A stretch of 64,000 nt of DNA from Candidatus Micrarchaeia archaeon (GTDB lineage Archaea > Micrarchaeota > Micrarchaeia > CABMEP01): contig JAVZRC010000002.1 in the NCBI GenBank assembly GCA_038880755.1, forward strand, positions 31,821-95,820, given 5' to 3'. This document shows, in pieces, positions 3,726 to 44,947 of the stretch. Each line of letters starts with the position of its first letter. The stretch's first letter is position 1. The position numbers were made by a program, and so were the translations under genes. The notes under the pieces were generated by a model. The model worked only from the letters and a program-made list of their open reading frames with translations, was not told where the DNA came from and ran no database searches.

Positions 3726-4787
3726 TTATTTTGAGGTTATTCTGCATTCAGAGCGATATTCACAAGATTTACACTTCCATTGTTTTGGTGGAATGGGATT
3801 CATTTTATTTGTGAGTAGTTTATCCATAGTGTTTAGAGTATGCACAGCATGCCTTTCATCTGTTTTTTGTTCAATAATTATTGATCTTTCATTTACTTTG
3901 TTCATTAACTTTATTTGAACTTTAATCTTTGGCTTTCCAAATAGATAGGAATAAATATTTGCCTGCGCGATTGCCATTGGTTTTATGAAATGACAAAGAA
4001 ATTCATTTGCTGTTGTTTTAAATTCATAACAGAAGTCAGGCCCTATTCCATCTGGTGCTCCTTCAATTATATAGTTTTTCCAATTGAAATGATATCTAAA
4101 AGTTGGATAATGCTCTGCTCTATTTAATTCTTCAAATATCCCTCTTTCTAATGGATTATCATATATAGTTTTTCTATTAGCAGTATCGTTTGACATTTCT
4201 GCTATTGCTAAATAAGGTATATTATTTTTTTTAAGTTCATTCTCTAATTTTATTAATGCAGATCTATAATTCTTACATTTATTTAGAATTTCTATAAAAT
4301 TATTAGTCAGAATCTTTTTTAATGGGTAATCGAATTTATTTATATCTGATTCATCTGGTATTATCGTTATCGCTCTTCCATGTATGTTTATGGTTGTATA
4401 ATCCTCCATAAATTGTGACAATATTTTATGCACCTCTTTTTTAGATAGTTGGCCGTATTTTTCAATATCTTCTTTATAAGATGCGAATATATTTTTCTCA
4501 TTGTTTCTAATCTTGAAAATCATTTGTTGATGACACCAGTACATACGTGCAATATCTGCAACTGCAACAAAACAGATTTGGTCTTTTTTAATGGATAATT
4601 TTTTCTTTTCTCTGATCATTTCTTTCTCTAAAATTTTATTATCAATTATATTCTCAGAGATTGGCAATTTCTTCATTGACCTGCTCTCTTCAGTCTTGCT
4701 TCCTATAGAAAATAAATCCTGATCTTTATTATCAATTTTTATTCTTTTTATTTTATCAGGCTTCTTCATATCCTTACACCAATTCAT
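3726..4787 (-). CDS. Cas4-family (DUF83/RecB-like) PD-(D/E)xK nuclease with a 4-Cys cluster, not CRISPR-associated here
   Basis: N-terminal Cys 'YWCHQQ'. Nuclease motifs 'GAPDGI', 'YEFKT' (ExK) and 'QANIY' (QxxxY). C-terminal 'CKSCEYRSEC' (CX2CX5C), typical of the Cas4/AddB Fe-S nuclease fold. Confidence 0.65.
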   Translation of the reverse strand: MNWCKDMKKPDKIKRIKIDNKDQDLFSIGSKTEESRSMKKLPISENIIDNKILEKEMIREKKKLSIKKDQICFVAVADIARMYWCHQQMIFKIRNNEKNIFASYKEDIEKYGQLSKKEVHKILSQFMEDYTTINIHGRAITIIPDESDINKFDYPLKKILTNNFIEILNKCKNYRSALIKLENELKKNNIPYLAIAEMSNDTANRKTIYDNPLERGIFEELNRAEHYPTFRYHFNWKNYIIEGAPDGIGPDFCYEFKTTANEFLCHFIKPMAIAQANIYSYLFGKPKIKVQIKLMNKVNERSIIIEQKTDERHAVHTLNTMDKLLTNKMNPIPPKQWKCKSCEYRSECRITSK

Positions 4788-4905: not shown

Positions 4906-6777
4906 TTACATCCTAGAAACTATAGGAGATTGGGATTTTCTTAAATCAATTGACATATATTTAGAAATAACATAAATGTCAGAAGCAAATATTCGCGCAA
5001 TTTGGTTTTTAGCATTCTTCTTTTTACCGTTTTTCATTCTTCTCAGCTCAAGAAACTTTGAATATCTTTTATCTAGAAGATTCACATATGTTATTATTTG
5101 ATCGCACAGCTCGTCTATTGTTTTATAATCTTTCTTATCATACGCCTCAATGATTCTTTTTACTGCATTTAACGGCATATTTATTGCTTCAAGTTCTTTC
5201 AATAGCTGCTTAATAAATTCTCTTTTTGCTTTACTTCTATTCCTTGCCATCACTCTCATTAATATTTTTCTAACAGAACCGTCAGATTTGTCAAATGTCT
5301 TTAATACAGCTATTATCCCCTCAATATTATTGTTTTCAGCAAGATTTATGAGGATCTTTATTTTCTCATCTAATATCTTAAGTCTTTGGAAAATATTTTC
5401 TAGAATTTTTTTCATATCTTCTTTTTTGTCTGCTTCAACTACATCTTTCAGCTTGATTGCATATATCTCTCTCTGCAGGGTTCTCGCAATTTCTCTTAGA
5501 TAGGAAGAAACAGCATGCTTTGCAAACTTGACTGCAGATAGGTAGTCATCTTTTGTAAGGTTCTTTCTTAGTTCTTTGTCAAATCTATCTATTTCCTTAA
5601 ATCGTGATGTTCTTTCCAATGTGTTCTTCCAATATCTTTCTTTATTCTCTTTCTTTGCTTGTTTTGCTTTTAAGATCTGGCTGTTTATGAATGTGACAAC
5701 TGAATTTATCCATACAGAATTTAATACGTCTATTATTTCGCCTTTTTTGATTATCAGTCTCTTCCCTTCCATTTCTTGGAGTGATTCCTCTATCTTTTTT
5801 ATCACTGCTTTATTTAGTTCTTCTATTTTCTCGTCAATCATTTCAATTTTTCTTGCTGCTTCCAGCAGTGATTTTGCAGTATTTAAAATATTCTCATGAA
5901 GTTGGTTTACTCTCTTCTTTATTTCATCTCTTGAGAGATGATCCCAGTCTATAAGGATGTTGTTTATTTCTCTGAAGATTTCTCGCTCAGCTGAATGCTT
6001 TTTAATGAATTCTTTTGCCTTTCTTACTGCTGCATCTGGATTAGTTTTTTCTAGCTCTTCTATTTCTTTTAATAGTTTCTCGATTTCTTTTTGAAATGTT
6101 TCCTTATCTATTTTTGATATTTCTTTTGATATCTGTTCGATATCATTCAAAAGACCCTCAGCGCCTTTTCCGTCTTTTTCTGCATTTTCAATTCTCTCTT
6201 CAATTTTATCTAAAATCTCCACTCTTTCTTTTATCTCTTCTTTTGTTTCTTCAATATACTCTTTCAGTTCTTCCAATCTTTCTTTTTCACTGTATTCTTT
6301 AATGGTTTCGGCTAATTCAAGAAGTCCGCTTTCTTGAACAGCAAGGATCTCAGCTTCCAATCTTTCCTTAATCACTTCCTCCTCATCCAAATTCTTCTCG
6401 ATTATCCTTGCAGCTTCTTCTTCAATTCTTTCTTGAATCTCTTCCCTTTCTCTTTCTTTATTTTCTATTTCCTCTATGAATTTTTCATGTTCTTTTTCTT
6501 TTATCTCTTCCTTTTCTTCTATTCGTTCCTTCAAGTCTGTGTCGGATGTTTCTTTTTCCCTTTCTTCCTTTTCCTTCATTTCTAGCTGTGCAATTAATGA
6601 TGCAAGATGTTCAACATACGCCTTCATTGCTTCAGGAGAAAGAGTGGTTGATTCATTGAGGAGTGAAGTCATGTGTTGATGAGGGAGAGAAGGAGTATGA
6701 ATGGGACTGTAAGTGGCTGGCTTACTATTATTAGATTTGGGCTCTCTATTAATATCCTTTCCAATGTTTAAACCCAT
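4906..6777 (-). CDS. Large E/K/I-rich coiled-coil protein, function unknown (full-length member of the duplicated module)
   Basis: 623-aa ORF. The N-terminal module 'PSLPHQHMTSLLNESTTLSPEAMKAYVEHLASLIAQLEMKEKEEREKE' is repeated at 7596-7904 and 10187-10339. Long heptad-like charged region, no TM segment. Confidence 0.7.
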   Translation of the reverse strand: MGLNIGKDINREPKSNNSKPATYSPIHTPSLPHQHMTSLLNESTTLSPEAMKAYVEHLASLIAQLEMKEKEEREKETSDTDLKERIEEKEEIKEKEHEKFIEEIENKEREREEIQERIEEEAARIIEKNLDEEEVIKERLEAEILAVQESGLLELAETIKEYSEKERLEELKEYIEETKEEIKERVEILDKIEERIENAEKDGKGAEGLLNDIEQISKEISKIDKETFQKEIEKLLKEIEELEKTNPDAAVRKAKEFIKKHSAEREIFREINNILIDWDHLSRDEIKKRVNQLHENILNTAKSLLEAARKIEMIDEKIEELNKAVIKKIEESLQEMEGKRLIIKKGEIIDVLNSVWINSVVTFINSQILKAKQAKKENKERYWKNTLERTSRFKEIDRFDKELRKNLTKDDYLSAVKFAKHAVSSYLREIARTLQREIYAIKLKDVVEADKKEDMKKILENIFQRLKILDEKIKILINLAENNNIEGIIAVLKTFDKSDGSVRKILMRVMARNRSKAKREFIKQLLKELEAINMPLNAVKRIIEAYDKKDYKTIDELCDQIITYVNLLDKRYSKFLELRRMKNGKKKNAKNQIARIFASDIYVISKYMSIDLRKSQSPIVSRM

Positions 6778-6801
6778 AAATCACTTTTCAAAAGGACATT
6801 T

Positions 6802-7599
6802 TTAATCCTTTCGTTTTTCTTTTTGTATTTCCTCATACATCCTTTCATTTTCTTTGAGATCTTCTTTTATATATTCTTTAATATTATCCTTCTCACTGTC
6901 AGATATTTCCCTGAAACCTTTTGAAGTATACTCTTTAAGCATAGAATTGGCAATATTTGTCATTAATTCCTTTTCAAATTCAATCAGTTCTTTTCCATAT
7001 TTAATTGCATCTTCGTAATAAAGATCTATTTCTTTTTCCTTTCGATATTCTCTATATCCCTCTTTATTAAAGTATAAACCATGTGCTGCATAGAATAATG
7101 CCTTTAAAGTTATATGTTTCTCAATTATACTCCGAGCATCGTCTGTATAGATTTTCAATCTTTCTTCGATTGCTTGTAATTTCTTTAGTAATATTTCTTT
7201 TGATTCACGATAAGTTTTCTTTTCTATCGCAAGATAATGATCTGTGGTGTAATCTAAAATCAACGCAGCTGGGTTCCCTGTTTTTTTATATACAGATTCG
7301 AAAATTTTTTTAGCAATTTCCAAACTCGCAGGAGTACCATCGCCATACCAATAGTTATCGAGAATTTTCAATCCTTTCTTTAATAACTTATCGTTTTCCA
7401 CTTCACTAGCAATATATGGTGGCGGATTTGCGCGAAGATATATCGCATCTGCCTTTTTTGCAGGATGCAAAAGTAATGAAGCACCTAATAGACCTGCAGC
7501 TAATGGTTTTTTCATTCTCTGCCATAATGAAGGCTTCTTTTCTTCCTTCTTTTCTCCTTTCTTTATTATCTTCTCCTCTCTTTCTGCCATAAATATCAT
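6802..7599 (-). CDS. Membrane-anchored/secreted helical protein, paralog A (function unknown)
   Basis: K/E-rich N-terminus, then signal-anchor 'KKPLAAGLLGASLLL'. The first ~45 aa are identical to 10365-11168; the rest is about two-thirds identical by eye. The true start may be the second ATG (7588-7590). Confidence 0.7.
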   Translation of the reverse strand: MIFMAEREEKIIKKGEKKEEKKPSLWQRMKKPLAAGLLGASLLLHPAKKADAIYLRANPPPYIASEVENDKLLKKGLKILDNYWYGDGTPASLEIAKKIFESVYKKTGNPAALILDYTTDHYLAIEKKTYRESKEILLKKLQAIEERLKIYTDDARSIIEKHITLKALFYAAHGLYFNKEGYREYRKEKEIDLYYEDAIKYGKELIEFEKELMTNIANSMLKEYTSKGFREISDSEKDNIKEYIKEDLKENERMYEEIQKEKRKD

Positions 7600-7904
7600 T
7601 CGCTGTTTAGATATTTAAAGGTAACTTTTTCTTTTATCTCTTCCTTTTCTTCTATTCGTTCCTTCAAGTCTGTGTCAGATGTTTCTTTTTCCCTTTCTTC
7701 CTTTTCCTTCATTTCTAGCTGTGCAATTAAGGATGATAAGTGTTCAACATATGCCTTCATTGCTTCGGGAGAAAGAGTGGTTGATTCATTGAGGAGTGAA
7801 GTTATATGTTGGTGAGGGAGAGAAGGAGTGGGGGTGGTAGCAGAGGTAGGAGAGGGATTAGAAGGAAACAGAAGCTTTATTTTATCGTAGTTATAATCTG
7901 TCAT
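7596..7904 (-). pseudogene. Truncated duplicate of the coiled-coil gene 5' end (102-aa ORF)
   Basis: 'SLPHQHITSLLNESTTLSPEAMKAYVEHLSSLIAQLEMKEKEEREKETSDTDLKERIEEKEEIKEK' matches residues ~30-95 of 4906-6777. The ORF then reads into the promoter module of paralog A ('VTFKYLNSE*') and overlaps its ATG by 4 nt. Confidence 0.6.
7612..7619 (-). promoter_or_regulatory. Archaeal TATA box (TTTAAATA) of paralog A
   Basis: TTTAAATA on the minus strand. Its 5' end is 29 nt upstream of the second ATG (7590), which fits a leaderless transcript. The same element recurs at 8736-8743 and 11181-11188. Confidence 0.55.
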
Positions 7905-7928
7905 GAATTACTTTTCTCTGCGATATTT

Positions 7929-8723
7929 TTAATCGTTTCGTTTTTCATTTACTAGTTCTTCGTACATTTTTTCATGTTGTGGAAAATTTCTTTTTGTCCA
8001 ATTTATAATCCCATTTTTTTCAGTATCAGATAATTGTCGTAATTCGGTTGAAGTATACTCTTTAAGCACTAAATTAGAAATATCTGTCATTAATGCCTTT
8101 TCAAATTCGATCAATTCTTTTACATATTTAATTGCATCTTCATAATAAAGATCTATTTCGTCTTTCTTTCGATATTCTCTATATTCCTCTTTATTAAAGT
8201 ATAAACCATATGCTGCATGGGATAATGCCATTAAAGTTATATGTTTTTCAGTTATGCTCCGAGCATCATCTGGATAGATTTTCAATCTTTCTTCAACTGC
8301 TTGTAATTTCTTTAACAGAAGTTCTTTTGATTCTTGATATGTCTTCTTTTCTACAGCCATATAATGATATGTAGTATTTTCTAAATCTAAAGCTACCGGA
8401 TTTCCCGTTTTTTTGTATACTGAATCAAAAATTTTTTTAGCAATTTCCAGACTCTCAATAGTGCCATTTCTATTCCAATAATTAACAAGAATTTCGTATC
8501 CTTTCTTTAACAACTTATCTTCTTCATTAGCAGCATATTCTGGTGGCGGTCTTGCAAGAATAGGAAGAGCACCCACCTTTTTTGCAGGACTGAAAAGCAA
8601 TGAAGCACCTAACAGACCTGCAGCTAATGGCTTCTTCATTCTCTGCCATAAAGAAGGTTTCTTCTCTTCCTTCTTTTCTTCTTTCTTTATTATCTTCTCC
8701 TCTCTTTCTGTCATAAATATCAT
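7929..8723 (-). CDS. Membrane-anchored/secreted helical protein, paralog B
   Basis: Same N-terminus ('MIFMTEREEKIIKKEEKKEEKKPSLWQRMKKPLAAGLLGASLL') and overall similarity to 6802-7599 and 10365-11168. Confidence 0.7.
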   Translation of the reverse strand: MIFMTEREEKIIKKEEKKEEKKPSLWQRMKKPLAAGLLGASLLFSPAKKVGALPILARPPPEYAANEEDKLLKKGYEILVNYWNRNGTIESLEIAKKIFDSVYKKTGNPVALDLENTTYHYMAVEKKTYQESKELLLKKLQAVEERLKIYPDDARSITEKHITLMALSHAAYGLYFNKEEYREYRKKDEIDLYYEDAIKYVKELIEFEKALMTDISNLVLKEYTSTELRQLSDTEKNGIINWTKRNFPQHEKMYEELVNEKRND

Positions 8724-8735
8724 TCGCTGTTTAGG

Positions 8736-8743
8736 TATTTAAA
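8736..8743 (-). promoter_or_regulatory. TATA box (TTTAAATA) of paralog B
   Basis: Conserved position within the 158-nt 5' module (8593-8750). Confidence 0.5.
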
Positions 8744-8896
8744 GGTAACTCTTTCTTGGCTTTGGAGAAGTCCTGTGATGAGAAAATAGGATTTCCACAT
8801 CTTATTATTTAGCTTTTAAACAAGTTTTTATTTTCTAAATCGAAACATTTATAATCTATGCTAATTATATTTATCATATAATAGAAAATAGGTTGA

Positions 8897-10180
8897 TTGC
8901 ATATGCCAAACATAAAAGAAGAAATGATAAATTTAAACCCTTGGTGGAAAGGCGAATTTAAATTATCTTTTAAAGATAGAGAGATCTATAGAAAAATTCA
9001 GAAATTCATACCTCTCCCGCAAATAATAGCTTTAACTGGGCTTAGGAGAGTTGGAAAAACAACTATACTTTTTAAGCTTGCTGAAGATGCAATAAACCAA
9101 GGGCTAGATCCTAAAAACATTCTTTATTTCTCTTTTGATGAATTCAAAGCGATCGAAATTAAAAAGATTGTTAGCGAATATGAAGAATTATTTGGAAAAA
9201 ACTTAAGAAATGGTAAATTTCTTTTTCTTTTTGATGAAATACAAAAGTTAGATGATTGGGAAAATCAATTAAAAGCATTTTATGATGTATATGGTAAAAA
9301 TGCAAAGATAATAATATCTGGTTCTGAATCGCTGTTTATAAAAAAGAAATCTAAAGAAACCCTTGCAGGAAGATTATTTGAATTTAAGGTAGAGCCCCTC
9401 TCATTCAAAGAATTTCTAAATTTTAAACAATTGAAATTTGAACCTGTTGAACTATATGAAAGAGAATTAAAAGAACAGTTTAAAGAATTTACTTTAACAT
9501 ATGGTTTTCCTGAGCTAGTAGGCATAAAGGATAAAGAGATCATTAAAAAATACGTTGTTGAAAGCATCGTAGAAAAAGTAATTTACAAAGATATACCCTC
9601 CCTAATGAAAGTAAAAGACATATCTATTATTGCGTCTCTTTTAAATACAATCATGGAGGAACCGGGACAACTTGCCGAAGTTTCTGAGTTTGCAAATAAT
9701 TTGAAAATCTCAAGATATACAACGGCTTCCTATCTTAGATATCTTGAAGATTCATTTCTAATTAGGAAACTCTATAACTTCTCTCGAAGCAGAAGAAAAG
9801 TGGAAAGAAAACTAAAGAAATATTATCCTACTATCATCTCTCCCAGTTTACTTTTCCGTAATGATGAACTTTCGCAATCAAAAGTATTTGAATGGATGAT
9901 TGTAAATCAACTTAGAGCTGAATTCTTTTGGCGAGATGCGTACAAAAATGAAGTGGACATTATCCTATTAAATGAGCAACCCACCCCTATTGAAGTGAAG
10001 TATGGAAAAATTGAATTCGAAGGCTTATCTACTTTCATGGAAAAATTCAATGTTAAGAGAGGTTATATTGTTTCTTTAGATACAGAAGAAAAGAAAAATA
10101 TCGGTGAGAAGGCAGTAGATGTAATTCCAGCCTTTAAATTCTTGTTAAGGCAAAGCACAGAAATTTATGATCAAGAATAG
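8897..10180 (+). CDS. AAA+ ATPase of the COG1373 / DUF4143-type family
   Basis: N-terminal 'NPWW'. Walker A 'GLRRVGKTT'. Walker B 'LFLFDEIQ'. The likely real start is the ATG at 8903. Confidence 0.65.
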   Translation: MHMPNIKEEMINLNPWWKGEFKLSFKDREIYRKIQKFIPLPQIIALTGLRRVGKTTILFKLAEDAINQGLDPKNILYFSFDEFKAIEIKKIVSEYEELFGKNLRNGKFLFLFDEIQKLDDWENQLKAFYDVYGKNAKIIISGSESLFIKKKSKETLAGRLFEFKVEPLSFKEFLNFKQLKFEPVELYERELKEQFKEFTLTYGFPELVGIKDKEIIKKYVVESIVEKVIYKDIPSLMKVKDISIIASLLNTIMEEPGQLAEVSEFANNLKISRYTTASYLRYLEDSFLIRKLYNFSRSRRKVERKLKKYYPTIISPSLLFRNDELSQSKVFEWMIVNQLRAEFFWRDAYKNEVDIILLNEQPTPIEVKYGKIEFEGLSTFMEKFNVKRGYIVSLDTEEKKNIGEKAVDVIPAFKFLLRQSTEIYDQE

Positions 10181-10186
10181 AACAGT

Positions 10187-10339
10187 TCATAAAAGAGTGG
10201 TTGATTCATTGAGGAGTGAAGTCATGTGTTGATGAGGAAGAGAAGGAGTGGTGGTAGCAGAGGCTGGTTTAGTATGATTATATTCTGGCTTTTGGGACCT
10301 CCCAATATGATCCCTATTCGAAACATGAAATAAGATCAT
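10187..10339 (-). pseudogene. 50-aa remnant of the coiled-coil gene 5' end (third copy), cut 7 nt from the ATPase stop
   Basis: My own translation gives 'MILFHVSNRDHIGRSQKPEYNHTKPASATTTPSLPHQHMTSLLNESTTLL*'. It matches the N-terminal module and stops where the full-length gene continues with 'SPEAMKAY'. Confidence 0.6.
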
Positions 10340-10364
10340 AAATCACTTTTTCTAAAAGACATTT

Positions 10365-11168
10365 TTAATCCTTTCTTTTTTCTTTTAATAATTCCTCATA
10401 CATGTTTTCGTTTTCTACGAGGTACTTTTTTAAGTGCTTTATAGCATCATCTCTTTCCGTATCATCAATTTCAATCGGTCCTGTTGAAGTATACACATTG
10501 AATTTTGAATTAGATAATAATTTATATAAATATTCTTTTTCAAATTCAATCAGTTTTTTTCCATATTCAATTGCATCTTTGTAATAAAGATCAATTTCCT
10601 TTTCATTTCGATATTTTCTGTATTCCTCTTTATTAAAGTATAAACCATGTGCTGCGTGAAATAATGCCTCTAAAGTTTCTTCTTTTTTATCTAAAGCACG
10701 AATATCATCTGGATATGATTTTAATCTTTCTTCAACTGATTTCAATTTATTTAACAATCTCGCCTTTGACTGATAATAATTTCTGTCTTCTATAGCGAGA
10801 TAATGATCTGTAACATGATTCAAATCTAATGCAACCGGGTTTCCTGTCTTTTTGTATATAGATTCGAAAATTTTTTTGGCAATTTCTAAACTTTCAGGAG
10901 TACCGTCACCATACCAATAGTTATTGAGGATTTCCAATCCTTTCTTTAATAGCTTATCTTTTTCCACTTCAGCAGCGGCATAAGGTGGGGGCGGTCTTGC
11001 AAGAAGATATATAGCATCCACCCTCTTTGCAGAACTGAAAAGTAATGAAGCACCTAACAGACCTGCAGCTAATGGTTTTTTCATTCTCTGCCATAATGAA
11101 GGCTTCTTTTCTTCCTTCTTTTCTCCTTTCTTTATTATCTTCTCCTCTCTTTCTGCCATAAATATCAT
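10365..11168 (-). CDS. Membrane-anchored/secreted helical protein, paralog C
   Basis: N-terminal 45 aa identical to paralog A. Conserved blocks 'GDGTP.SLEIAKKIFES.YKKTGNP' and 'HGLYFNKE.YR.YR.EKEIDLYY.DAI.YGK.LIEFEKE'. Confidence 0.7.
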   Translation of the reverse strand: MIFMAEREEKIIKKGEKKEEKKPSLWQRMKKPLAAGLLGASLLFSSAKRVDAIYLLARPPPPYAAAEVEKDKLLKKGLEILNNYWYGDGTPESLEIAKKIFESIYKKTGNPVALDLNHVTDHYLAIEDRNYYQSKARLLNKLKSVEERLKSYPDDIRALDKKEETLEALFHAAHGLYFNKEEYRKYRNEKEIDLYYKDAIEYGKKLIEFEKEYLYKLLSNSKFNVYTSTGPIEIDDTERDDAIKHLKKYLVENENMYEELLKEKRKD

Positions 11169-11180
11169 TCGCTGTTTAGA

Positions 11181-11188
11181 TATTTAAA
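11181..11188 (-). promoter_or_regulatory. TATA box (TTTAAATA) of paralog C
   Basis: Same conserved element and spacing as at 7612-7619. Confidence 0.5.
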
Positions 11189-11351
11189 GGTAACTTGAAT
11201 GAGAAAGCAGATGCGTAGATGTTTTGAAGTTTGAGCGCATAGTGCAAACAACAGTAAAAAAGAAAAGTAGAAAAGTTTTTAAAGTATTATTTTGTATACT
11301 ATAAGTATAAGAATACTTTATGACGATTACAATTTGTGAAGGTGATATGGT

Positions 11352-11696
11352 ATGACTCAGAAACAAGCTTGGTTTGTAGGTATCTTGCTGTTGGGCATTT
11401 TCCTTACTAACATCATATATGCGCAAGATTCAAATCTAAGTAATTATACTAAAAATGCTACAGCAGAATTGTTAGGTAAAAATTCTGTAATATGCAAACT
11501 TCTTGGAGTACTTAATGTATTTGGTGCCGTCGCAATGACTTCTGGTATTTTATTAGCAGGTTATAACTTCTTATCTGCAAGCCAGGAAGCAAGGGAAAAA
11601 GGTAAAATCGGAACCGAGGGAGTGTTGATTGGCGGTGGCCTTATAATGATGGCTCCACAAATAGTGTCCTACATCTTCGGTTTCGCGGTTTGCTAA
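11352..11696 (+). CDS. VirB2/TrbC-like (or CedA1/A2-like) small membrane protein 1
   Basis: Signal peptide 'WFVGILLLGIFLTNIIYA', then two hydrophobic helices separated by the charged loop 'SQEAREKGKIGTE'. C-terminal 'IMMAPQIVSYIFG' is shared with 14446-14844. GGTGA SD. Confidence 0.55.
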   Translation: MTQKQAWFVGILLLGIFLTNIIYAQDSNLSNYTKNATAELLGKNSVICKLLGVLNVFGAVAMTSGILLAGYNFLSASQEAREKGKIGTEGVLIGGGLIMMAPQIVSYIFGFAVC

Positions 11697-11718
11697 TTAA
11701 CTACTTAAGGGCGTAGTT

Positions 11719-14373
11719 ATGGCATATCCAATTCCAAAATCAATCGCATACGAAGAAAAAATCGCATTTGGATTGACTTTGAAACAATTAGGTTATGCCA
11801 TAATTGGAATAGCAATCGCATATAATCTGTTTAATATTTTTGCTCCTTTTGATTTTACTATTGCAGCTGTCATTGCATATTTTGTAATTATGATCACTGC
11901 AGGTTTTATCTTTTTAGATTTGGAAGAAAAGCTGTTAATGCTTTTAGATTATCATTTAAACGTTAAACATGGTGGATTCGATTCTCCTGAAGTTAAAAAA
12001 TTCATGGAAGTTGCATCAATACGTGATGATATAATTTTTCTTAAAAATGGAGAAATGAGAGCAGTTATTCGTGTAAGACCGGTAAACTTTTCAACAATAG
12101 ATGAAGAAAAAAAAGAAAGAATAACAGCTCTTTTCGCATCTTTTCTGCAACAATTAGAAGGACCAATTCAACTTCATGTTAGAACTGTCAATGTGGATAT
12201 AAGAGATCAGTTGGATGCATGGGAAAAGCAAATAGAAAAGAGAAATAAAGAACTATTGCCACTTTTCAAAGATTTCAGAAAATATGAAGAACGATTATTA
12301 AGAGAAAATACAGTTAGAGAAAGGCTTTTTTATATCATCGTTCCATTCACTCCTGTAAAAAATGCAAAAGATAACATTGATCAATTAAATAGAAAGGTCC
12401 AAATTATTCAAGAAGCCCTTTTTGGAATTGGTTTAGCAAACAACCGCTTGACTTCTGATGAACTAGTCGCATTTTTAGCAAGTTACTTTGAAGAACGTCT
12501 GTTAGTAAGAAATGAGTATCTGGGAGGGAGGACATTACTATCTCGATGGATAGAAAGTCGAGATGAAAAAATAGCACCAAAACTTAAAGACGAAATGCTT
12601 TCAAGTATATTGTGTCCTTCAAGAATTGAAACAACTCCAGAATACATAAGAATAAATGAAATTTATTATCGTCCTATCATAGGAGTTGGTTTCCCAAAGT
12701 ATGTGGAAAGTGGATGGTTGGAAAGATTAATAGGAACGCGTGACAATTATGACATCTCTATACATATTGAACCAACTTCAATTGAAGCTGCAAAGGTTAT
12801 GTTGCATAAACAGATTGTAAAAGAAGAGGCAGATCTTGCCATATCAATGGCAAAAGGAGTTCCAAACCCATCTTTAGAAAACCTCCTTGCAGATACAAAG
12901 GAATTCTTTGATTGGCTAGATAGAGGAGAGGAACAATTATTTAGTGTAAGTATATATGTAGTCGCAAAAGCAAGAACAAAAGATGAGTTGGACTTCTTAA
13001 CAGCAAAATGTAAATCTGATCTTAATGCTGTATCAATAATACCAAAAATCCCATACTATCAAATGGCAACTGCATTAAAATCAGCAATGCCATTAGGGCT
13101 TGACAGAATTAAAAAGGTAAGAGAATTTCCAACATCAACCCTAGCAGCATCATTTCCCTTCATGACAACTACAGTTGAATCGGATGAGAGCGGAAATGGA
13201 ACTCTAATAGCACATGACAGAGCAACTCTTAATCCAATCATCGTTGATTTCAATAAGCTTTCCAATGCGCATTTCATGCTTCTTGCAAAGAGTGGCGCTG
13301 GTAAATCATACACTAGTAAACTATTGCTTACAAGAATGCTCATGAACGGTGCAAGAATATATGTCGTTGATCCTAATGGTGAATATAATCGACTATGTCA
13401 GCATTATGCTGGAGAACGTATAATTTTATCTAGAGACTCACCAAATATTATAAACCCATTAGATTTATTCAATGAAGACTATGCTGATAAGCGTATATCA
13501 CTCATTGCAATATTCTCAATAATCTGCAACGGATTATCCCCTGTTGCAGAAGGAATAATTGATCGTGTTTTAAATGCAGTATACGAAAAGAAAGGAATAA
13601 CAAATGATCCAGAAACATGGAACAAACGACCACCAATAATGAGTGATGTTCTGGCAGAACTTGAAGAAGAGAAAAAAAGACTTGAAAAAATACAAAATAA
13701 GACTGAACTTAAAGAAGTACAAATGCTGATTACAAAGATAAGCAGATATACAAAGAAGGGAGTTTATGGTTTTGTAGATAAGCAAACAAAATTAGATACT
13801 AGCAAGGGTTTTGTAGTATTTGATATTAATGAATTACCAGATGAAGTAAAGCCACTTTTCATGTTCTTAGTTTTGGATTACATCATAAATATTACAAAAA
13901 GCAATCTCGATAAAAAAGCAGTTGTAATAGATGAGGGCTGGTCATTATTAAATAATCCAAAAACTGCTGAACATCTTTTATGGTTGATAAAGGCATCAAG
14001 AAAATTCAATACCAGCATGATATTTATAACCCAGGAAGTAAATGACCTTTTAGGTACCAAAGCTGGAGAATCTATCCTAGCAAACACTGCAATCAAGATT
14101 ATGCTCGCACAAGATGAGACCGTAATCAACGCATTATCAGACATAATGCATTTAAATGAAACAGAAAAAACTCTATTGACTGTTGCTAAAAGAGGAGAAG
14201 GAATTTTATTCATTGAGAATTCTGTTAGAGTTCCAATCATAATTACAGCATCGCCAAAAGAACATGAATTAATAACCACCCATCCAGAAGAACTAAAGGC
14301 AATACAAGAAGAAAAGAAAGCAGTGAAAGAAAGGGAAAATGCAAGGTCAAAATCAAAAGGAAATGATAAATAA
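11719..14373 (+). CDS. VirB4/TrbE/CedB-like type IV secretion ATPase with an N-terminal VirB3-like 2-TM segment
   Basis: Two N-terminal TM helices. Walker A 'LLAKSGAGKSYTSK'. Walker B 'KKAVVIDEGWSLL'. 'MIFITQEVNDL' block. The size (884 aa) is typical of VirB4/TraC. Confidence 0.75.
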   Translation: MAYPIPKSIAYEEKIAFGLTLKQLGYAIIGIAIAYNLFNIFAPFDFTIAAVIAYFVIMITAGFIFLDLEEKLLMLLDYHLNVKHGGFDSPEVKKFMEVASIRDDIIFLKNGEMRAVIRVRPVNFSTIDEEKKERITALFASFLQQLEGPIQLHVRTVNVDIRDQLDAWEKQIEKRNKELLPLFKDFRKYEERLLRENTVRERLFYIIVPFTPVKNAKDNIDQLNRKVQIIQEALFGIGLANNRLTSDELVAFLASYFEERLLVRNEYLGGRTLLSRWIESRDEKIAPKLKDEMLSSILCPSRIETTPEYIRINEIYYRPIIGVGFPKYVESGWLERLIGTRDNYDISIHIEPTSIEAAKVMLHKQIVKEEADLAISMAKGVPNPSLENLLADTKEFFDWLDRGEEQLFSVSIYVVAKARTKDELDFLTAKCKSDLNAVSIIPKIPYYQMATALKSAMPLGLDRIKKVREFPTSTLAASFPFMTTTVESDESGNGTLIAHDRATLNPIIVDFNKLSNAHFMLLAKSGAGKSYTSKLLLTRMLMNGARIYVVDPNGEYNRLCQHYAGERIILSRDSPNIINPLDLFNEDYADKRISLIAIFSIICNGLSPVAEGIIDRVLNAVYEKKGITNDPETWNKRPPIMSDVLAELEEEKKRLEKIQNKTELKEVQMLITKISRYTKKGVYGFVDKQTKLDTSKGFVVFDINELPDEVKPLFMFLVLDYIINITKSNLDKKAVVIDEGWSLLNNPKTAEHLLWLIKASRKFNTSMIFITQEVNDLLGTKAGESILANTAIKIMLAQDETVINALSDIMHLNETEKTLLTVAKRGEGILFIENSVRVPIIITASPKEHELITTHPEELKAIQEEKKAVKERENARSKSKGNDK

Positions 14374-14445
14374 TTTTGATAAAATATAACATAAATTTTT
14401 AAATATAAATTTCTTATTAGATATATATTCGAATTTAAATTAAAT

Positions 14446-14844
14446 GTGATAACTATGAAAATCAAAAATGAAAAAAATTCAAAAGAAAAAAATAAAGAAA
14501 GGATGAACTTTAAAAAAAATAAAATATTGACATTGGTACTGCTTACATTTATCTTGAATATACTGGTTGCCGTTGTTTCTGCCGCAAACAGCAATGTTAG
14601 AGAAGTAATTGGTAAAATACATGGCTATGCAACGGTTCTAGCAGCAATAGGATTCAGTATAATTATCTTCTATTCAGGTTATAAATTTTATTTTGCAGAA
14701 AGTGAACTTGAAAGGAAAGATGCCTGGACGACTTTAGGGTATGGAATAATAGGTGCTTTGCTGGTTATTATGGCACCTAAGATTGGTAGTTATTTGATGG
14801 GAGATACGTCTCTTTTTTCTAGTGATCCAAAATGTACGATTTAG
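14446..14844 (+). CDS. VirB2/TrbC-like small membrane protein 2 (paralog of 11352-11696)
   Basis: Signal peptide 'LTLVLLTFILNILVAVVSA'. Two hydrophobic helices around 'AESELERKDAW'. 'VIMAPKIGSYLMG' motif. The probable start is the ATG at 14455. Confidence 0.55.
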   Translation: MITMKIKNEKNSKEKNKERMNFKKNKILTLVLLTFILNILVAVVSAANSNVREVIGKIHGYATVLAAIGFSIIIFYSGYKFYFAESELERKDAWTTLGYGIIGALLVIMAPKIGSYLMGDTSLFSSDPKCTI

Positions 14845-16724
14845 ATGATTCCCAGCATGCAAGAAATATAAATCTCAATCATTTCAACCATAATGTTTCA
14901 GACTATAGGGTTAAACAAAATCTAAGAATTGGATTAAATATAAAATTCTTACTACTATATTTTTTATTTCTTGGTTTATTTTCTTATTCTCATACACGGT
15001 CTGATGTTTTTTATGATAAAGATTATAGTATCCAAAATTTCAATAGCCCTTTGCTTGAATATAATTTATGTGAATTAATTGCGAAAAGTTATTATGCCAA
15101 TTGCACTAATGGTGATTTATTCAAACAAATGACAGATCTGTTAAATAGTTTTTTGACAAATTTATTTGGAAGTAAATCAGATACTAGTTGTATATCTCAA
15201 ACAACTAAGCTATTTTTTAACTGCAGTGAAATCTATGAATCAAACCTGACTGAGTATGAGAAAAAAATGTTAATCGCTAATTATCTAATTAATGAAAGTG
15301 GGCCGGAAATGTCTCTAAAAATAAATAAGATCAATAGTATTATTTTGGAGAGGATAAATTCTGATCTTGGTATTCATAGAAAAGTGGCACCATCAAATAC
15401 AAAAGTATACGAGGGTAAACTTTTTAGGAATACTTGGATAAAAATAGTTTACACGAATAATTCATTTGTTGATGAAAATAATAAAACATGGGTTCTTTTC
15501 GGCCAAAAACCAGAATTTATATATAATATTGACTTTGTTTATTTCTTACCAGAAAAAAATGAAGAGGATTGTGCTTCCCCTACAATTAGCAATAAAGGTA
15601 ATTATGATTTTACAATCCATACCTTATATGATGGATTAGAGACAGAATATTTCAATACAACTCAACACGGTAAAGAAGTGAACTTTACAGTTGTTCTTAA
15701 TTTCAATGGTCAATTTAGCTACAAACGATACCACGAAATAACTGTAGAAGTTTGTGATAATCAAACTTGTTGGAATGAAACTAGGTGCGAACCATATGAA
15801 ATAACAATAAAAGAAACAGGTTCGATCTCAGATTCAAAGCTGTTCACGATATTTGGGAATGATATCGCTTCAGCTTATATATTTACAGATAGCAAGAAAT
15901 TTTATAATATGAACAACATAGGAATAAATGGTTTTGCATTTGTCATTATCCCTCCAGTTTATAATTGTATTCTCTCCATCTATGGAAAAAATTTAACTAT
16001 TAGCCATACTCTAGTGTATCCAGATATTTTAGATTCTGCACCATATGATTTTTTAGTACATAGAAGAAATGGTGGCTTCACTCAATTATTCTTTCCGCTT
16101 GATCTTTCTGCTAATTCAATTATTAATTTACAACATGATTATGAGAACAACAACTCTAATCAAGAAGCGATCCAATTGATGTTAGATTATAATGTTCCAA
16201 TTGAGATAATCAATTTATTTAATCATAGCAAAATTATAAGTTTCATTCACTTTAATCTATATTCAAATAATATTTCTGATTGTAGTTTAATGTGTTATAA
16301 TATTTTTGGAACTGTATCGACACAGCAAATAAGTTGCAATTATAATTATTCAAGGAAGAGCTGGATTACAATTGAAAAGAAAAATATTTCAGATAGATAT
16401 ATGGAAGTTAAAATAAAACTAACTGATTCTTTGAACAACTCATTATCAGGAAAGAAACTAAAAATAATCTATCCCGGTTTTATTATCGATGGAATTACAG
16501 ATGCGAATGGAGAGTATATATTAAACATATCAAAAGGAGAGAGAGCGATTCTATTAGATGTCTACTTTGATACTGATGGAAAATATATGAGTTCTTCAAA
16601 TTCGATAGAAATAGATCCTTTACCTAAAGAATCGGAATTTTTATTCTGGATTAAGATTTTTATCGTTTTTGGTTTATTATATTACAGTTATAAGCAGATC
16701 TTGTATATGTATAGATATATCTGA
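14832..16724 (+). CDS. Sequon- and Cys-rich surface protein with N- and C-terminal TM anchors (function unknown)
   Basis: TM 'FLLLYFLFLGLFSY' near the N-terminus and 'FLFWIKIFIVFGLLYYSY' at the C-terminus. Many N-x-S/T sequons. The start overlaps the preceding gene by 13 nt. Confidence 0.6.
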   Translation: MYDLDDSQHARNINLNHFNHNVSDYRVKQNLRIGLNIKFLLLYFLFLGLFSYSHTRSDVFYDKDYSIQNFNSPLLEYNLCELIAKSYYANCTNGDLFKQMTDLLNSFLTNLFGSKSDTSCISQTTKLFFNCSEIYESNLTEYEKKMLIANYLINESGPEMSLKINKINSIILERINSDLGIHRKVAPSNTKVYEGKLFRNTWIKIVYTNNSFVDENNKTWVLFGQKPEFIYNIDFVYFLPEKNEEDCASPTISNKGNYDFTIHTLYDGLETEYFNTTQHGKEVNFTVVLNFNGQFSYKRYHEITVEVCDNQTCWNETRCEPYEITIKETGSISDSKLFTIFGNDIASAYIFTDSKKFYNMNNIGINGFAFVIIPPVYNCILSIYGKNLTISHTLVYPDILDSAPYDFLVHRRNGGFTQLFFPLDLSANSIINLQHDYENNNSNQEAIQLMLDYNVPIEIINLFNHSKIISFIHFNLYSNNISDCSLMCYNIFGTVSTQQISCNYNYSRKSWITIEKKNISDRYMEVKIKLTDSLNNSLSGKKLKIIYPGFIIDGITDANGEYILNISKGERAILLDVYFDTDGKYMSSSNSIEIDPLPKESEFLFWIKIFIVFGLLYYSYKQILYMYRYI

Positions 16725-16766
16725 TATGAATAAATATTAACTCGATGACAAAATTAGGTTGATTTA

Positions 16767-18242
16767 ATGATTTTAGAAAGTTTACTGAAAACAAATAAAA
16801 TAAAGAAGATAAATTTAAGCAGTTTCTTTCTCATTTCTATCTTCACACTATTTCTTATTCTTTTCCCAATCATAAATGCATACGAAGTAGATAAAAATCA
16901 GAGTTATATACTTATTTATGATCCGCAAAAAATTGATGAGTTGAGTGGATTTAATCCTAGTAATATAACATTATGCGAGGATAATACTTCTAATTGCGGC
17001 GGGGGCAGTACTAAATTTGATATAGTTTCCATAATCACTGCTGGTCTAGATATTATTCTAAAATTCATCCTAGATTTTTTCTCAGGTCTATTTACAAATG
17101 TTATTAGTGGAATAGTTAAAGCTTTTACAAAGATTTTCTTTTGGTTTATCGCTTCATTTCCAAATCTTTCTACGCCAAGTATAGCCTGTGAATACAATAA
17201 AGTTTATTCGCTTGTTGCATCACTTTATTCTTTAGCAATAGCAGTCGTCGGTTTATACTGGGTATTTGGTGCTACCGACACCTCAAAAAGAATTCAAGCC
17301 AAAGAATATACTGAATTATTATTCTTTATAATCATTGCAGAAACAGTAGCTCCATATCTATTTAACATACTTGTAGATTTAAGCTTATCATTAACTACTA
17401 TATTTTTGAATGAAGATACTATTGGTAAATTTCTTGGTACGATTGTAGTTGGGATTCTTAGTGGTGCTGCAATTATTGTAATGACATGGGGACCGACGAC
17501 GCCGTTTCTTTTATTGATTCTACTTATCATGTTTATACTTACTCTTCTTCTTTTATTTGTTAGAAATCTATTGATTGCCATCATGTACGTCTTGCTACCA
17601 CTTTCTATATTTCTATACTTCTTTCCTCTTACTAGGCGCGTAGGTGCTAACTTATTAAGATATACAGTGACGCTAATCTTTTCTCCTTTAATACTTGGGA
17701 TAGTGTTGTACGCTGCGATAGTTGTGAGTGAAGCAGTACTTGGTCCATTCTTCTATGTGTTGAGTGTTTTATATTTAATAATAATCCTTTATTTGATATA
17801 CAAGATTCTTTCAGCAATAACATTGGGTGCATTATCCGAAATGCTATCTAATATTCTTAACGCACAACTAAGTTTTCCAAGTGCATTATCGATGGGGAAA
17901 GAAGCTGCTACATACCTTATAGGTCCAATGGGTGGGGGAGGCAGTGCGCTTTCCTATTTGGCTCTTGGGGCAAAGGGTTATTTCGCCAGAACGGTGCCTC
18001 GTGTTATGAGATCATTTTCTCATATTAAAGTTCCTATGCCAACCATAAAGACCACGCAAAAAGGTTTGGGGGTTTCTATTAAAGAGGTACAGCCTTTTAA
18101 AGCATTTGAAAGACCACTTGCAGAAAGGATACCTGTCTTAGACCAGATCCAACGTATAAACCTATCTAAAGAGGTAAAGAAAAATATTGAGTATCTAAAA
18201 AGAAAGGATACAGAACCTGTTAAAAAGCAAAGACGAAAATAG
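16767..18242 (+). CDS. Polytopic membrane protein, VirB6/TrbL/CedA-like
   Basis: Signal-like N-terminus, a short Cys-containing ectodomain, then ~7-8 hydrophobic helices and a basic cytoplasmic tail. It is the last gene of the VirB4 operon. Confidence 0.5.
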   Translation: MILESLLKTNKIKKINLSSFFLISIFTLFLILFPIINAYEVDKNQSYILIYDPQKIDELSGFNPSNITLCEDNTSNCGGGSTKFDIVSIITAGLDIILKFILDFFSGLFTNVISGIVKAFTKIFFWFIASFPNLSTPSIACEYNKVYSLVASLYSLAIAVVGLYWVFGATDTSKRIQAKEYTELLFFIIIAETVAPYLFNILVDLSLSLTTIFLNEDTIGKFLGTIVVGILSGAAIIVMTWGPTTPFLLLILLIMFILTLLLLFVRNLLIAIMYVLLPLSIFLYFFPLTRRVGANLLRYTVTLIFSPLILGIVLYAAIVVSEAVLGPFFYVLSVLYLIIILYLIYKILSAITLGALSEMLSNILNAQLSFPSALSMGKEAATYLIGPMGGGGSALSYLALGAKGYFARTVPRVMRSFSHIKVPMPTIKTTQKGLGVSIKEVQPFKAFERPLAERIPVLDQIQRINLSKEVKKNIEYLKRKDTEPVKKQRRK

Positions 18243-41582: not shown

Positions 41583-42866
41583 TTGAAAATACATGTTCTT
41601 GGAGCTGGAAGAGAAGTTGGAAGATCGATGATGCTTGTAGAGACAGAAGGAAAGAAGATTGCATTAGATGCAGGAATAAAGGTTAAGGATCAGGACATGG
41701 AAGTTACAGGACTTCCAAAGCTTGACATAAATGTCAAGATTGATGCTGCATTGATAGGACATGCGCATCTTGACCATTCTGGATTCTCTCCTGAACTTTA
41801 TAGAAGATACAATACTCCATTTTTCATGACAATTCCTACCCAAGGATTGGCAGACCTTCTGATAAAGGATGCTAAGAAGATAGACCCACAGCTTCCGTAT
41901 GAAAGAAATGATATAGATGGCACATTTAATAAAACAGTTGGAGTGCCATACGGAATGGAACATTCAATCGGCAGTGTTAAATTCACTTACTATGATGCAG
42001 GTCACATCCCAGGAAGCGCAATGATGGAGATAAAGACTGAAAGAAAAAGATTATTCTACACAAGCGACTTCAAATTAGATGAAACAAGGCTTCTTTCAGG
42101 AGCAACCATTCCAGAAGGAAGGTTCAATGCTCTTATTATAGAAAGCACTTATGCAAAGAGATACCATCCTCCAAGAAGAGAAACTGAAAGAAAGATCATA
42201 AACATAGTTAAAAAGACGCTGAATGATGGAGGAAATGTTCTGTTCCCGACATTCGCAGTTGGAAGAACTCAGGAGCTTGCAATGGTACTGGCTGATTATC
42301 AGATAAACGCCCCTATATTCATAGATGGAATGGGAAAAACAGCGTCTGAGATAACTATGAGCTATCCGAGATATGTCAAAAATCCAGGTAAATTAAAGAA
42401 TGCTCTTGAAAATTTAAAACCAGTAGGAAAAAACAAAAATGAAGTGCTTAAGGAACCATCGATAATAATAGCAACATCTGGTATGCTTGAAGGTGGTCCT
42501 GCAATAAGCTATTTGCTTGCTTTGAACGAGATGAAAAAAAGAGAGGACATAGATTCCTCTGTGATATTCACTGGCTACTGTGTTGAAGGAACAGGAGGAT
42601 GGCTGCTTCAGAATAAGCAGATGGCAAAGATAAAACCAAGAAGAGAAGGAGGAAAGACAAAAGAAGTGCCTATAAATCTAAATGTTTTCTACGAGCCATT
42701 AAGTGCACATGCTGGCAGAAATGAATTATTTAAATTCATAGAAACAGTTGAACCTGAAAAAATAATATGTGTGCATGGAGATGATTGCGAAGGATTTGCT
42801 TCTGAGCTGAAAGAAAACGGCTATGACGCAATAGCTCCAGACATAGGAGAAACGATTCAGATATAA
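41583..42866 (+). CDS. Metallo-beta-lactamase / beta-CASP ribonuclease (aCPSF2-like)
   Basis: 'GHAHLDHSG' (HxHxDH), 'DAGHIPGS', and a C-terminal 'VHGD' motif. TTG start in the track. Confidence 0.75.
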   Translation: MKIHVLGAGREVGRSMMLVETEGKKIALDAGIKVKDQDMEVTGLPKLDINVKIDAALIGHAHLDHSGFSPELYRRYNTPFFMTIPTQGLADLLIKDAKKIDPQLPYERNDIDGTFNKTVGVPYGMEHSIGSVKFTYYDAGHIPGSAMMEIKTERKRLFYTSDFKLDETRLLSGATIPEGRFNALIIESTYAKRYHPPRRETERKIINIVKKTLNDGGNVLFPTFAVGRTQELAMVLADYQINAPIFIDGMGKTASEITMSYPRYVKNPGKLKNALENLKPVGKNKNEVLKEPSIIIATSGMLEGGPAISYLLALNEMKKREDIDSSVIFTGYCVEGTGGWLLQNKQMAKIKPRREGGKTKEVPINLNVFYEPLSAHAGRNELFKFIETVEPEKIICVHGDDCEGFASELKENGYDAIAPDIGETIQI

Positions 42867-42998
42867 CAATTCGATTTAGAGTATTGTTTTTCAAATGAGC
42901 AGATTCGAGAAAAATAGAAAAATATAAATACGTTAAACGTGCTTCTTTTATTAGCATCTTAATCAATACGTTACACATCAAAATAATTAGGTGGAAGA

Positions 42999-43337: not shown

Positions 43338-43445
43338 GCTATCAACGACAAAACCATAATAAAAACAATAAAATACAATAATAAAGATCAAATCGAAAAA
43401 TAAACAGAGATATATAACAGAGATGGATATATAAATGAGTTAATA

Positions 43446-44507: not shown

Positions 44508-44633
44508 AAAATCACAAAAGAAATTATATGGAAAAAAATAAAAAACTATGAATAACCTAGTATAAAATAAAAAATTAAGTTAAGTCGATAAAAATATATT
44601 AAAAAAGAAAAGAATCATATCGTTTAAATATAA

Positions 44634-44867: not shown

Positions 44868-44947
44868 TTAATAAATAACCTTTGTAATAGAACCACGCAT
44901 AACTTATTTATAAACCTTTCCTTTGCGTATTGATCTTGATTTCTGTT

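Follow-up and report, generated by a model that had tools for sequence, protein, structure and literature searches.

The window analysed here is a stretch of 64,000 nt from Candidatus Micrarchaeia archaeon (assembly GCA_038880755.1, contig JAVZRC010000002.1). It carries on its minus strand three co-oriented genes for related proteins, named paralogs A, B and C, which were mechanically called as open reading frames (ORFs) of 264–267 aa (6802–7599, 7929–8723 and 10365–11168). Each of them has a promoter module, an ATG and a full ORF, as do all unlinked members of the family. The three genes appear to form a duplicated array in which a short module of promoter and leader sequence is kept alike by gene conversion and the mature domains diverge. 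The coordinates of the features are collected in Table 1.

Paralogs A and B lie in two head-to-tail units. When the region was compared with itself by blastn, unit A (6492–7633) and unit B (7625–8757) were 81% identical. Unit C was 80% identical to the A side (10192–11196 against 6639–7627) and 75% identical to the B side (10192–11195 against 7772–8750). The sliding-window identity between units is 96–100% in the 5' module, 55–75% in several central stretches and 94–98% in a piece of a coiled-coil gene that follows the paralog, a profile far from uniform. This mosaic had been proposed in the initial annotation, which was made from the sequence alone, and most of its details are borne out. The module copies of A and C (7469–7626 and 11038–11195), described as essentially identical, differ at 1/158 nt, and the copy of B (8593–8750), described as having a few mismatches, differs from that of A at 10/158 nt. 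The near-identical coiled-coil 5' pieces of A and B (6492–6696 and 7625–7829) differ at 11/205 nt. The protein identity of the mature domains among A, B and C is 61–69%, close to the two-thirds estimated by eye. A abuts B, with the joint at 7625/7626, and the truncated coiled-coil ORF of 102 aa (7596–7904) does read into the promoter of A, entering its TATA module. Two other points needed correction. The three units were described as tandem, but paralog C is separated from B by 1.44 kb, which holds a plus-strand AAA_14/DUF4143 gene (8897–10180). Every unit was said to carry about 200 nt of the coiled-coil 5' end, which holds for A and B but not for C, where only a short remnant is found (10192–10260).

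The 21-nt core motif GTTACCTTTAAATAYCTAAAC occurs exactly 3 times in the 64-kb window, versus 0.01 occurrences expected by chance. Over 20.8 kb, a contig of GCA_038873075.1 matches the window at 99.98% identity, and at the related loci L001, L003 and L009 the array is present at 99.98–100% identity. The exact A, B and 102-aa proteins are found on 8 contigs, and the same array with identical proteins on 6–8 contigs. The repeat is not due to chance, and the array is real and stable in the strain of L001, L003 and L009.

Promoter-leader module

When the 5' regions of all fetched family members were aligned, the similarity started abruptly at GTTACC-TTTAAATA and extended across the start codon as far as codon 49. 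This abrupt boundary is also common to unlinked genes at other loci and in other genomes. The operon-first genes of the window have a TTTAWAWA box starting 26–30 nt before the ATG and no Shine-Dalgarno (SD) sequence, and the internal genes have GGTG/GTGA-type motifs. In eight other first genes of the window, the TATA box is located at −26 to −30. The family TATA box lies at −29 when counted from the second ATG (MAE/MTE at 7590, 8714 and 11159), as in these leaderless genes, and therefore the second ATG is most likely the true start of a leaderless mRNA. No homopolymer or repeat tract occurs in the 21 nt between the TATA box and the ATG. The scan for bacterial promoters and terminators was uninformative for an archaeon. 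An RNA element in the conserved module was considered and rejected: the fold z-score is −0.96, and the only Rfam matches in the window are two tRNAs.

The leader, MAEREEKIIKKGEKKEEKKPSLWQRMKKPLAAGLLGASLLFSPAKKADA, has 49 residues and is nearly invariant. It consists of about 30 charged, Lys/Glu-rich residues (N-region), a hydrophobic core of about 12 residues and small residues at −3/−1 (AxA), for which ADA, VGA and VDA were seen as variants. The leaders of the family members contain no Cys, hence no lipobox Cys at the cleavage site. The maximum Kyte-Doolittle hydropathy is 2.2 over 12 residues (KD12) and 0.85–1.18 over 19 residues (KD19). The 12-residue core reaches transmembrane hydrophobicity, and no 19-residue window of the leader does. 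The paralogs had been described as membrane-anchored in the initial annotation, but a core of about 12 residues followed by AxA resembles a cleavable signal peptide rather than a transmembrane helix. Judged by these features, the leader is probably a cleavable Sec-type signal peptide with an unusually long N-region, by which the helical domain would be exported. A Tat signal was considered for the distant member P0031, which has TRRLLV, and was rejected because twin arginines are absent from the other members. The leaders generally have Gly/Ala/Ser-rich cores and basic residues before AxA, as in Tat signals.

Conversion, duplication and strain variation

The synonymous (dS) and non-synonymous (dN) divergences were calculated by the method of Nei-Gojobori, and the dN/dS of the leader was pooled over six close family genes. 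The leader shows a dN/dS of 0.04–0.06. In the mature region of these six genes the maximum in any 20-codon window is 0.84, and the pairwise values among A, B and C are 0.27–0.37. The initial annotation had proposed tandem duplication followed either by conversion of the 5' ends or by diversifying selection on the exposed domains. The duplication and the conversion agree with the data given below. Diversifying selection is not supported, as dN/dS is below 1 everywhere, although single sites may be subject to it, the family sequences being too few for codon site models.

The comparison of A with C points to conversion most directly. Between these two genes, dS is 0.15 in the leader versus 0.76 in the mature region, and the leader differences are all in the last 12 codons. 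Their modules share an unbroken identical run of 137 nt from the 5' edge (7490–7626 in A), which spans about 37 codons and the non-coding part of the promoter. When A, B or C was compared with the unlinked member at L006, dS was 0.58–0.96 in the leader and 1.25–1.44, near saturation, in the mature region. Unlinked paralogs differ at 12–16 of about 30 synonymous leader sites, which argues that these sites are free to change. Since they are not frozen, and since the mature dS between A and C is 0.76, the identity of A and C requires recent gene conversion.

The distribution of informative sites is consistent with this. Sites supporting A=B, A=C and B=C are unevenly spread along the gene (permutation P = 2e-4). 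In four triplets, including alleles from other genomes, the heterogeneity of informative sites gave P = 2e-4 to 8e-4 by permutation. The leader of A is 96% identical to those of other-subfamily members, and that of C is 100% identical to the leader of P0008, with mature domains 21–28% identical. By comparison, P0017, a same-subfamily protein from another lineage, has a mature domain 44–47% identical to P0007/P0010 and a leader only 46–49% identical. Therefore the leader follows lineage and not subfamily. The nucleotide variant encoding LFSSAKRVDA is common to C and an unlinked gene in L014. These results indicate that gene conversion homogenises the promoter-leader module.

The pattern between A and B is less distinct. 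The proportion of synonymous differences (pS) between them falls from 0.39 in the centre to 0.30 in the leader and to 0.19 in the coiled-coil block, where the non-synonymous proportion (pN) is 0.019. This synonymous contrast is modest, the contrast in A-B identity is mostly non-synonymous, and part of the A-B pattern is differential constraint, with purifying selection acting more strongly on the leader and the N-terminus of the coiled-coil protein.

The joint between the two units can be read by comparing three sequences. At the A/B joint the sequence is ...GATAAAAGAAAAAG|TTACCTTTAAATA. The equivalent place in the intact coiled-coil gene has ...GATAAAAGAAAAAG|AACATG, and upstream of B the sequence is ...GCCAAGAAAGAG|TTACC. 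From this comparison, the joint lies within an imperfect 9-nt microhomology, AAGAAA[A/G]AG, which is the signature of an illegitimate or unequal exchange duplicating 1,133 bp. The history of the array can thus be described. A 1,133-bp segment that begins at the promoter and takes in the coiled-coil gene up to about codon 95 was duplicated head to tail, leaving the truncated 102-aa ORF between B and A. Copy C is an older unit whose coiled-coil gene was cut off next to the AAA_14 gene. After duplication, the copies exchanged segments. The mature domain is a mosaic and evolves under relaxed purifying selection (dN/dS 0.3–0.8). The promoter-leader module is kept alike by strong purifying selection together with short-tract gene conversion, which extends to unlinked family members of other subfamilies. 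Copy number, the variant found at a given position and the neighbouring genes all vary among related strains and species.

Similar duplications occurred independently elsewhere, namely at L006, at L013 and in two fusions. At L006, a 256-aa coiled-coil ORF (9214–9984) lies directly upstream of a family gene and reads into its promoter. It is almost identical to residues ~146–400 of the downstream 661-aa coiled-coil protein, and is an independent partial duplication at an unlinked housekeeping locus. The coiled-coil gene there is followed by a gene for a 727-aa ankyrin-repeat protein. At L013, from a different species, a 287-aa coiled-coil fragment lies between two family genes. P0014 (L007, 10001–11245) and P0016 (L017, 7527–8783) are in-frame fusions of two family genes with 414–415 aa, arranged as leader, partial helical domain, second leader-like stretch and full domain.

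Related genomes vary in the number of copies and in which variant stands at a given position. To the right of 8752, L002 matches the window at 99.8% identity, and its left side is replaced. The left side of L002 contains a helix-turn-helix (HTH) gene, a 207-aa gene, an other-subfamily member, a coiled-coil gene 74% identical to that of the window and a Cas4-like gene 65% identical. The strain-variable segment starts just after the AAA_14/DUF4143 gene, at 8752. One metagenome-assembled genome (MAG) has two short contigs ending at the same coiled-coil coordinate, of which L009 is of the window type and L014 carries a type II member, P0008, that resembles the one in L002. The sample therefore probably contains both variants. 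In L005 the AAA_14 gene is followed by three units, of which the first is a different allele with C-like patches. The other two are identical to each other and 98–100% identical to A; they may have been duplicated very recently or result from the assembly. Still other variants of the family genes are present in L010 and L011.

Protein family, partner gene and neighbourhood

The mature domain is all-helical and has about 210 residues (~215). AlphaFold2, run on a 13-sequence alignment, modelled residues 58–257 confidently as nine helices and a small hairpin (219–228), and the blockwise predicted local distance difference test score (pLDDT) for residues 61–260 was 84–97. Whether the ectodomain is TPR/Sel1-like had been raised in the initial annotation; the all-helical model is confident, but no significant TPR/Sel1 profile or fold match was obtained. 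Foldseek gave no match for the confident model in the PDB or BFVD at E ≤ 0.001. The best PDB fold matches are TPR/Sel1-like but non-significant (COA7, TTC5, BamD and Tom20; E 0.14–1.2, template modelling (TM) score 0.16–0.38). No Pfam family matched A, B or C at E ≤ 0.01, the best being TPR_14 with E = 0.13 in 1/13 members. Searches of the paralogs and the coiled-coil protein against PHROGs, PADLOC and PDB sequences returned nothing significant.

The family is small. Among 5.8 billion clusters 16 matches were found, all from Micrarchaeia, and 24 representatives were found among 1.84 billion proteins. GTDB contained nine family loci from four Micrarchaeia/Micrarchaeota genomes and JGI contained two short contigs with relatives. 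IMG/VR contained no relative, and a virus or plasmid origin was rejected on this ground. All relatives of the paralogs are from Candidatus Micrarchaeia/Micrarchaeota MAGs with the isolate-name prefixes DRTY-6, DRTY-7 and JZ-3, which are probably MAGs from Tengchong hot springs. By these searches, the paralogs belong to a very small, unannotated orphan family restricted to Micrarchaeia/Micrarchaeota (DPANN) genomes.

The coiled-coil gene starts 24 nt after paralog A and has an SD-like GTGAT instead of a TATA box, and so it is probably co-transcribed with A as one operon. In most members examined, a large coiled-coil gene begins about 25–30 nt downstream and is preceded by an SD-like motif, so that the two genes probably form an operon; L012 is an exception. 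The 102-aa ORF comprises ~95 codons from the start of the coiled-coil gene and then runs into the promoter of A, and its first ~30 codons are unrelated to the intact gene. Against the intact gene, the shared block has 8 synonymous versus 3 non-synonymous changes (pS 0.19, pN 0.019), suggesting that the 102-aa ORF is either under constraint itself or converted from functional alleles. A homologue search with the C-terminal half of the coiled-coil protein gave no match; the cluster representative is a 174-aa fragment, which probably explains the missed homologues. AlphaFold2 of the C-terminal 324 residues (3 sequences) was unusable, with a pLDDT of 38.7. P0041, a coiled-coil homologue with 69% identity, is labelled Candidatus Aenigmatarchaeota in NCBI, which may reflect mis-binning or transfer between DPANN lineages.

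Several neighbouring genes recur with the array. The AAA_14/DUF4143 gene is in the same position in L002, L010, L011 and L005, and its place between family members is conserved in several species. A stand-alone Cas4-like nuclease gene follows the coiled-coil gene, and in its surroundings neither a CRISPR array nor a further cas gene was seen. Beyond it lie a metalloprotease-like gene and a type III restriction-like helicase gene. On the other side is a type IV secretion system (T4SS)-like cluster, which is cleanly absent in L010 (window 11207–18239, 7.0 kb). The deletion has other end points in L011 (10264–17930), where a stub of the 491-aa gene is left, and in L005 (10258–18260). Literature searches found no relevant T4SS or surface-protein family described in Micrarchaeota.

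Table 1. Coordinates of the array, its repeat units and the neighbouring genes in the window
Feature	Position	Strand	Remarks
Duplicon A	6492–7626	−	Promoter/leader module, paralog A, 24-nt spacer and first ~95 codons of the intact coiled-coil gene; self-blastn, sliding-window identity
Duplicon B	7625–8757	−	Head to tail with A; self-blastn, sliding-window identity
Paralog A, coding sequence	6802–7590	−	262 aa from MAE (mechanical ORF start 7599); annotated as hypothetical protein of Candidatus Micrarchaeia archaeon
Paralog B, coding sequence	7929–8714	−	261 aa
Paralog C, coding sequence	10365–11159	−	264 aa
Promoter and leader module of A	7469–7626	−	GTTACC, TTTAAATA at −29, ATG, 49-residue leader
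Promoter and leader module of B	8593–8750	−	10/158 nt differ from the A module
Promoter and leader module of C	11038–11195	−	1/158 nt differs from the A module; 137 nt identical
Duplicated part of the coiled-coil gene (codons ~28–95)	6492–6696	−	95% identity with 7625–7829 in unit B
Truncated coiled-coil ORF	7596–7904	−	102 aa; ends inside the promoter module of A; annotated as a gene
Full-length coiled-coil partner gene	4906–6777	−	623 aa; no transmembrane segment, no Pfam match; SD-like GTGAT just upstream
Remnant of coiled-coil gene 5' end, downstream of C	10187–10339	−	50-aa ORF; clear homology 10192–10260; its end is 11 nt away from the AAA_14 stop codon
AAA_14/DUF4143 ATPase gene	8897–10180	+	Pfam 4.8e-34 and 7e-20; PADLOC candidate defence family PDC-S01, 2.8e-66
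Cas4-like PD-(D/E)XK nuclease	3726–4787	−	C-terminal CxxC...C cluster; after the coiled-coil gene here, in L002 (16757–17725) and in L010 (14718–15710)
Type IV secretion-like cluster	11207–18239	+	Upstream of copy C; starts 11 nt upstream of the module of C
VirB2/TrbC-like pilins	11352–11696 and 14446–14844	+	In the T4SS-like cluster
PrgI(VirB3)-VirB4 fusion	11719–14373	+	In the T4SS-like cluster
630-aa protein rich in N-x-S/T sites	14832–16724	+	In the T4SS-like cluster
Polytopic 491-aa membrane protein	16767–18242	+	In the T4SS-like cluster

Some observations were made elsewhere in the window. The region 41583–46819, whose ORF lengths of 427, 353 and 623 aa equal those of the AAA_14, Cas4-like and coiled-coil genes, was considered as a second copy of the array region and rejected: no blastp similarity was found and the lengths are a coincidence. 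By eye, the ORFs 41583–42866, 43446–44507 and 44948–46819 look like genes for a metallo-beta-lactamase-fold protein, a polyprenyl synthase and an arginyl-tRNA synthetase. Within the 1064-aa ORF 60622–63816, a 63-nt direct repeat (61958–62020 and 62093–62155; 78% identity, copies 135 nt apart) suggests an internal repeat domain. The mechanical start of ORF 50401–51624, by eye a multi-pass membrane protein, overlaps tRNA-Leu (50450–50536), and its true start probably lies further downstream.

Possible roles and known parallels

Taking anatomy, history and inferred function together, the locus is best explained as a duplicated, converting array of lineage-restricted genes for exported proteins, to which we give a probability of about 0.6. 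If exported, the helical domain would act as a TPR-like scaffold for an extracellular partner. With several differing copies, the cell could widen or alter the binding specificity, possibly towards a host cell, and this is the weakest step. Micrarchaeota are generally seen as host-attached episymbionts, and for this reason host contact is the most attractive target. A surface or host-contact role is plausible. The more specific proposal is that these are DPANN-specific exported binding proteins, whose promoter-leader module is kept uniform by conversion and whose helical domains and coiled-coil partners, perhaps with the 102-aa fragments, set the host attachment range. We regard this as speculative and rather improbable. 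If it were true, conversion would let new or imported mature domains always be expressed and exported alike, and the strain turnover at the locus would be the archaeal equivalent of what bacterial parasites show at their variable surface-protein loci.

A number of observations weigh against the reading as an array of exported-protein genes. Export is deduced from sequence features only, and Sec signals do not usually have a charged N-region of 30 residues. Neither a signal peptide nor a transmembrane segment is present in the coiled-coil partner, and a partnership across the membrane is not obvious. With a best Foldseek E-value of 0.14, 'TPR-like' describes the fold class only. The synonymous contrast between ends and centre is modest for A and B, and constraint explains much of their identity pattern. 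As reported above, dN/dS is below 1 throughout. The occurrence of an identical array on 6–8 contigs speaks against fast switching. The two identical L005 units come from a short-read contig of 9.4 kb, where an assembly effect is conceivable.

Some of these points suit a neutral paralog array, which would result from segmental duplication, with ends conserved by purifying selection alone and centres drifting under weak constraint, and with neither adaptive diversification nor a special role of conversion. The dN/dS below 1 in every window, the A-B pS values of leader, centre and coiled-coil block, and the stability of the array across 6–8 contigs would all be expected from it. However, purifying selection alone does not readily give A and C identical over 137 nt at a mature dS of 0.76, as the synonymous sites of the leader vary in other members. 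The significant mosaic, the leader variants common to different subfamilies and loci, the recurrence of the same kind of duplication at other loci and in another species, and the swapping of divergent variants at one position between strains also count against neutrality, which we consider unlikely though worth keeping in view. An assembly artefact, in which a repeat was mis-joined or expanded in a short-read metagenome assembly, would be suggested by the origin of the source genomes (short-read MAGs, probably from Tengchong springs), by one MAG that breaks the region into contigs of 2.5–2.8 kb ending at the same coiled-coil coordinate, and by the suspect pair of identical L005 units. Its probability is close to nil, since the same architecture is found at 99.98–100% identity in L001, L003 and L009 and 8 contigs encode exactly the A, B and 102-aa proteins. 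Moreover, the units are 20% divergent overall with near-identical stretches of merely 137–205 nt, all ORFs are intact, and the microhomology at the joint is clean.

The neighbourhood of the array suggests two other functions. In a defence or mobile-element module, the paralog, the coiled-coil protein and the Cas4-like nuclease would act together in a defence island, the exported protein being a sensor or a receptor decoy and the strain variation reflecting an arms race with viruses. Neighbours of this kind are present, including the AAA_14/DUF4143 gene (PDC-S01, 2.8e-66), the Cas4-like nuclease and the type III restriction-like helicase, and the trio of paralog, coiled-coil and Cas4-like genes recurs in L002 and L010. 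An HTH gene and a second small gene, toxin-antitoxin-like by eye only, stand beside members in L002, L010 and L013, and strains with 99.8% identity on the right have an entirely different left side. Yet the members in L006 and L007 lie among housekeeping genes without a nuclease, the paralog and coiled-coil proteins have no PADLOC or PHROG match, and no relative is found in IMG/VR, which makes a defence role distinctly unlikely. The paralogs could also be accessories of the T4SS, as a VirB5-like pilus-tip adhesin or a VirB8-like bitopic subunit varying to match target cells. Copy C starts 11 nt from the cluster, divergent to a VirB2-like pilin gene, and the size (~215 mature residues), signal peptide and helical fold of the paralogs are what we take to be broadly VirB5-like. 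No match to VirB5/TraC, VirB8 (NTF2-like) or another T4SS protein was obtained in Pfam, PDB sequences, PDB folds or BFVD, however. The members at L006 and L007 have no T4SS gene near them, and L010, L011 and L005 keep paralogs without the cluster. A role as a T4SS subunit is not supported and is very improbable.

Little is known of the way in which DPANN archaea recognise their hosts and hold on to them, and there are almost no candidate specificity factors for Micrarchaeota. The locus provides a small, well-defined candidate set, with an orphan family, a confident fold model, a signal-peptide-like leader, a fixed gene partner and natural variants that distinguish co-occurring strains. For archaea, it also gives a clean case of concerted evolution confined to a promoter-plus-leader module. 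Should the proteins be cytoplasmic or unrelated to host contact, an ordinary paralog array remains.

The array resembles several known systems in part. The variable surface lipoproteins of Mycoplasma include Vlp of M. hyorhinis, Vsp of M. bovis, Vpma of M. agalactiae and Vsa of M. pulmonis. As in these families, the paralogs are clustered in a small-genome, surface-dependent organism, the promoter and signal peptide are near-identical, the mature parts are divergent, the copies recombine and the repertoires differ between strains. Unlike these lipoproteins, the array has no lipobox Cys and no homopolymer tract in the promoter, its mature part is a folded helical domain instead of short tandem repeats, and a coiled-coil gene is paired with each. 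All copies have the same intact promoter, and nothing points to on/off switching. No invertase or recombinase was seen among the 20 largest ORFs scanned between 74 and 22590, and no convincing inverted repeats flank the paralogs, the best pairs being 70–77% complementary over 30–42 nt. The diversification cassette suggested in the initial annotation, if understood as one of the antigenic-variation type, is not supported for a locus with no switching machinery, an own promoter for each copy and the same array with identical proteins on 6–8 contigs.

The Neisseria pilE/pilS and Borrelia vlsE systems share with the array the conversion between copies that yields mosaic coding sequences, and a conserved 5' part beside variable parts. 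They have one expression site and promoterless partial cassettes, whereas every copy of the array is a complete gene with promoter, start and leader, and the array is identical on 6–8 contigs. Like the paralogs with their probable signal peptide and all-helical domain, the secreted Sel1/TPR-like families, such as Hcp/SLR of Helicobacter pylori and LpnE and EnhC of Legionella, combine a signal peptide with a helical repeat domain; they also have several paralogs per genome and a presumed protein-binding role at the surface. Unlike them, the paralogs described here are archaeal and have neither the Sel1/TPR sequence signature nor paired cysteines (fold E ≥ 0.14). The mechanism proposed for the array is concerted evolution by unequal crossing-over and ectopic conversion, with head-to-tail units, a microhomology joint, low synonymous divergence in tracts and parts that track lineage. 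No essential difference from it was found; what is peculiar here is that the converted promoter-leader module is common to subfamilies that are 21–28% identical elsewhere. The family is new and unannotated, and its evolutionary pattern is a well-known one.

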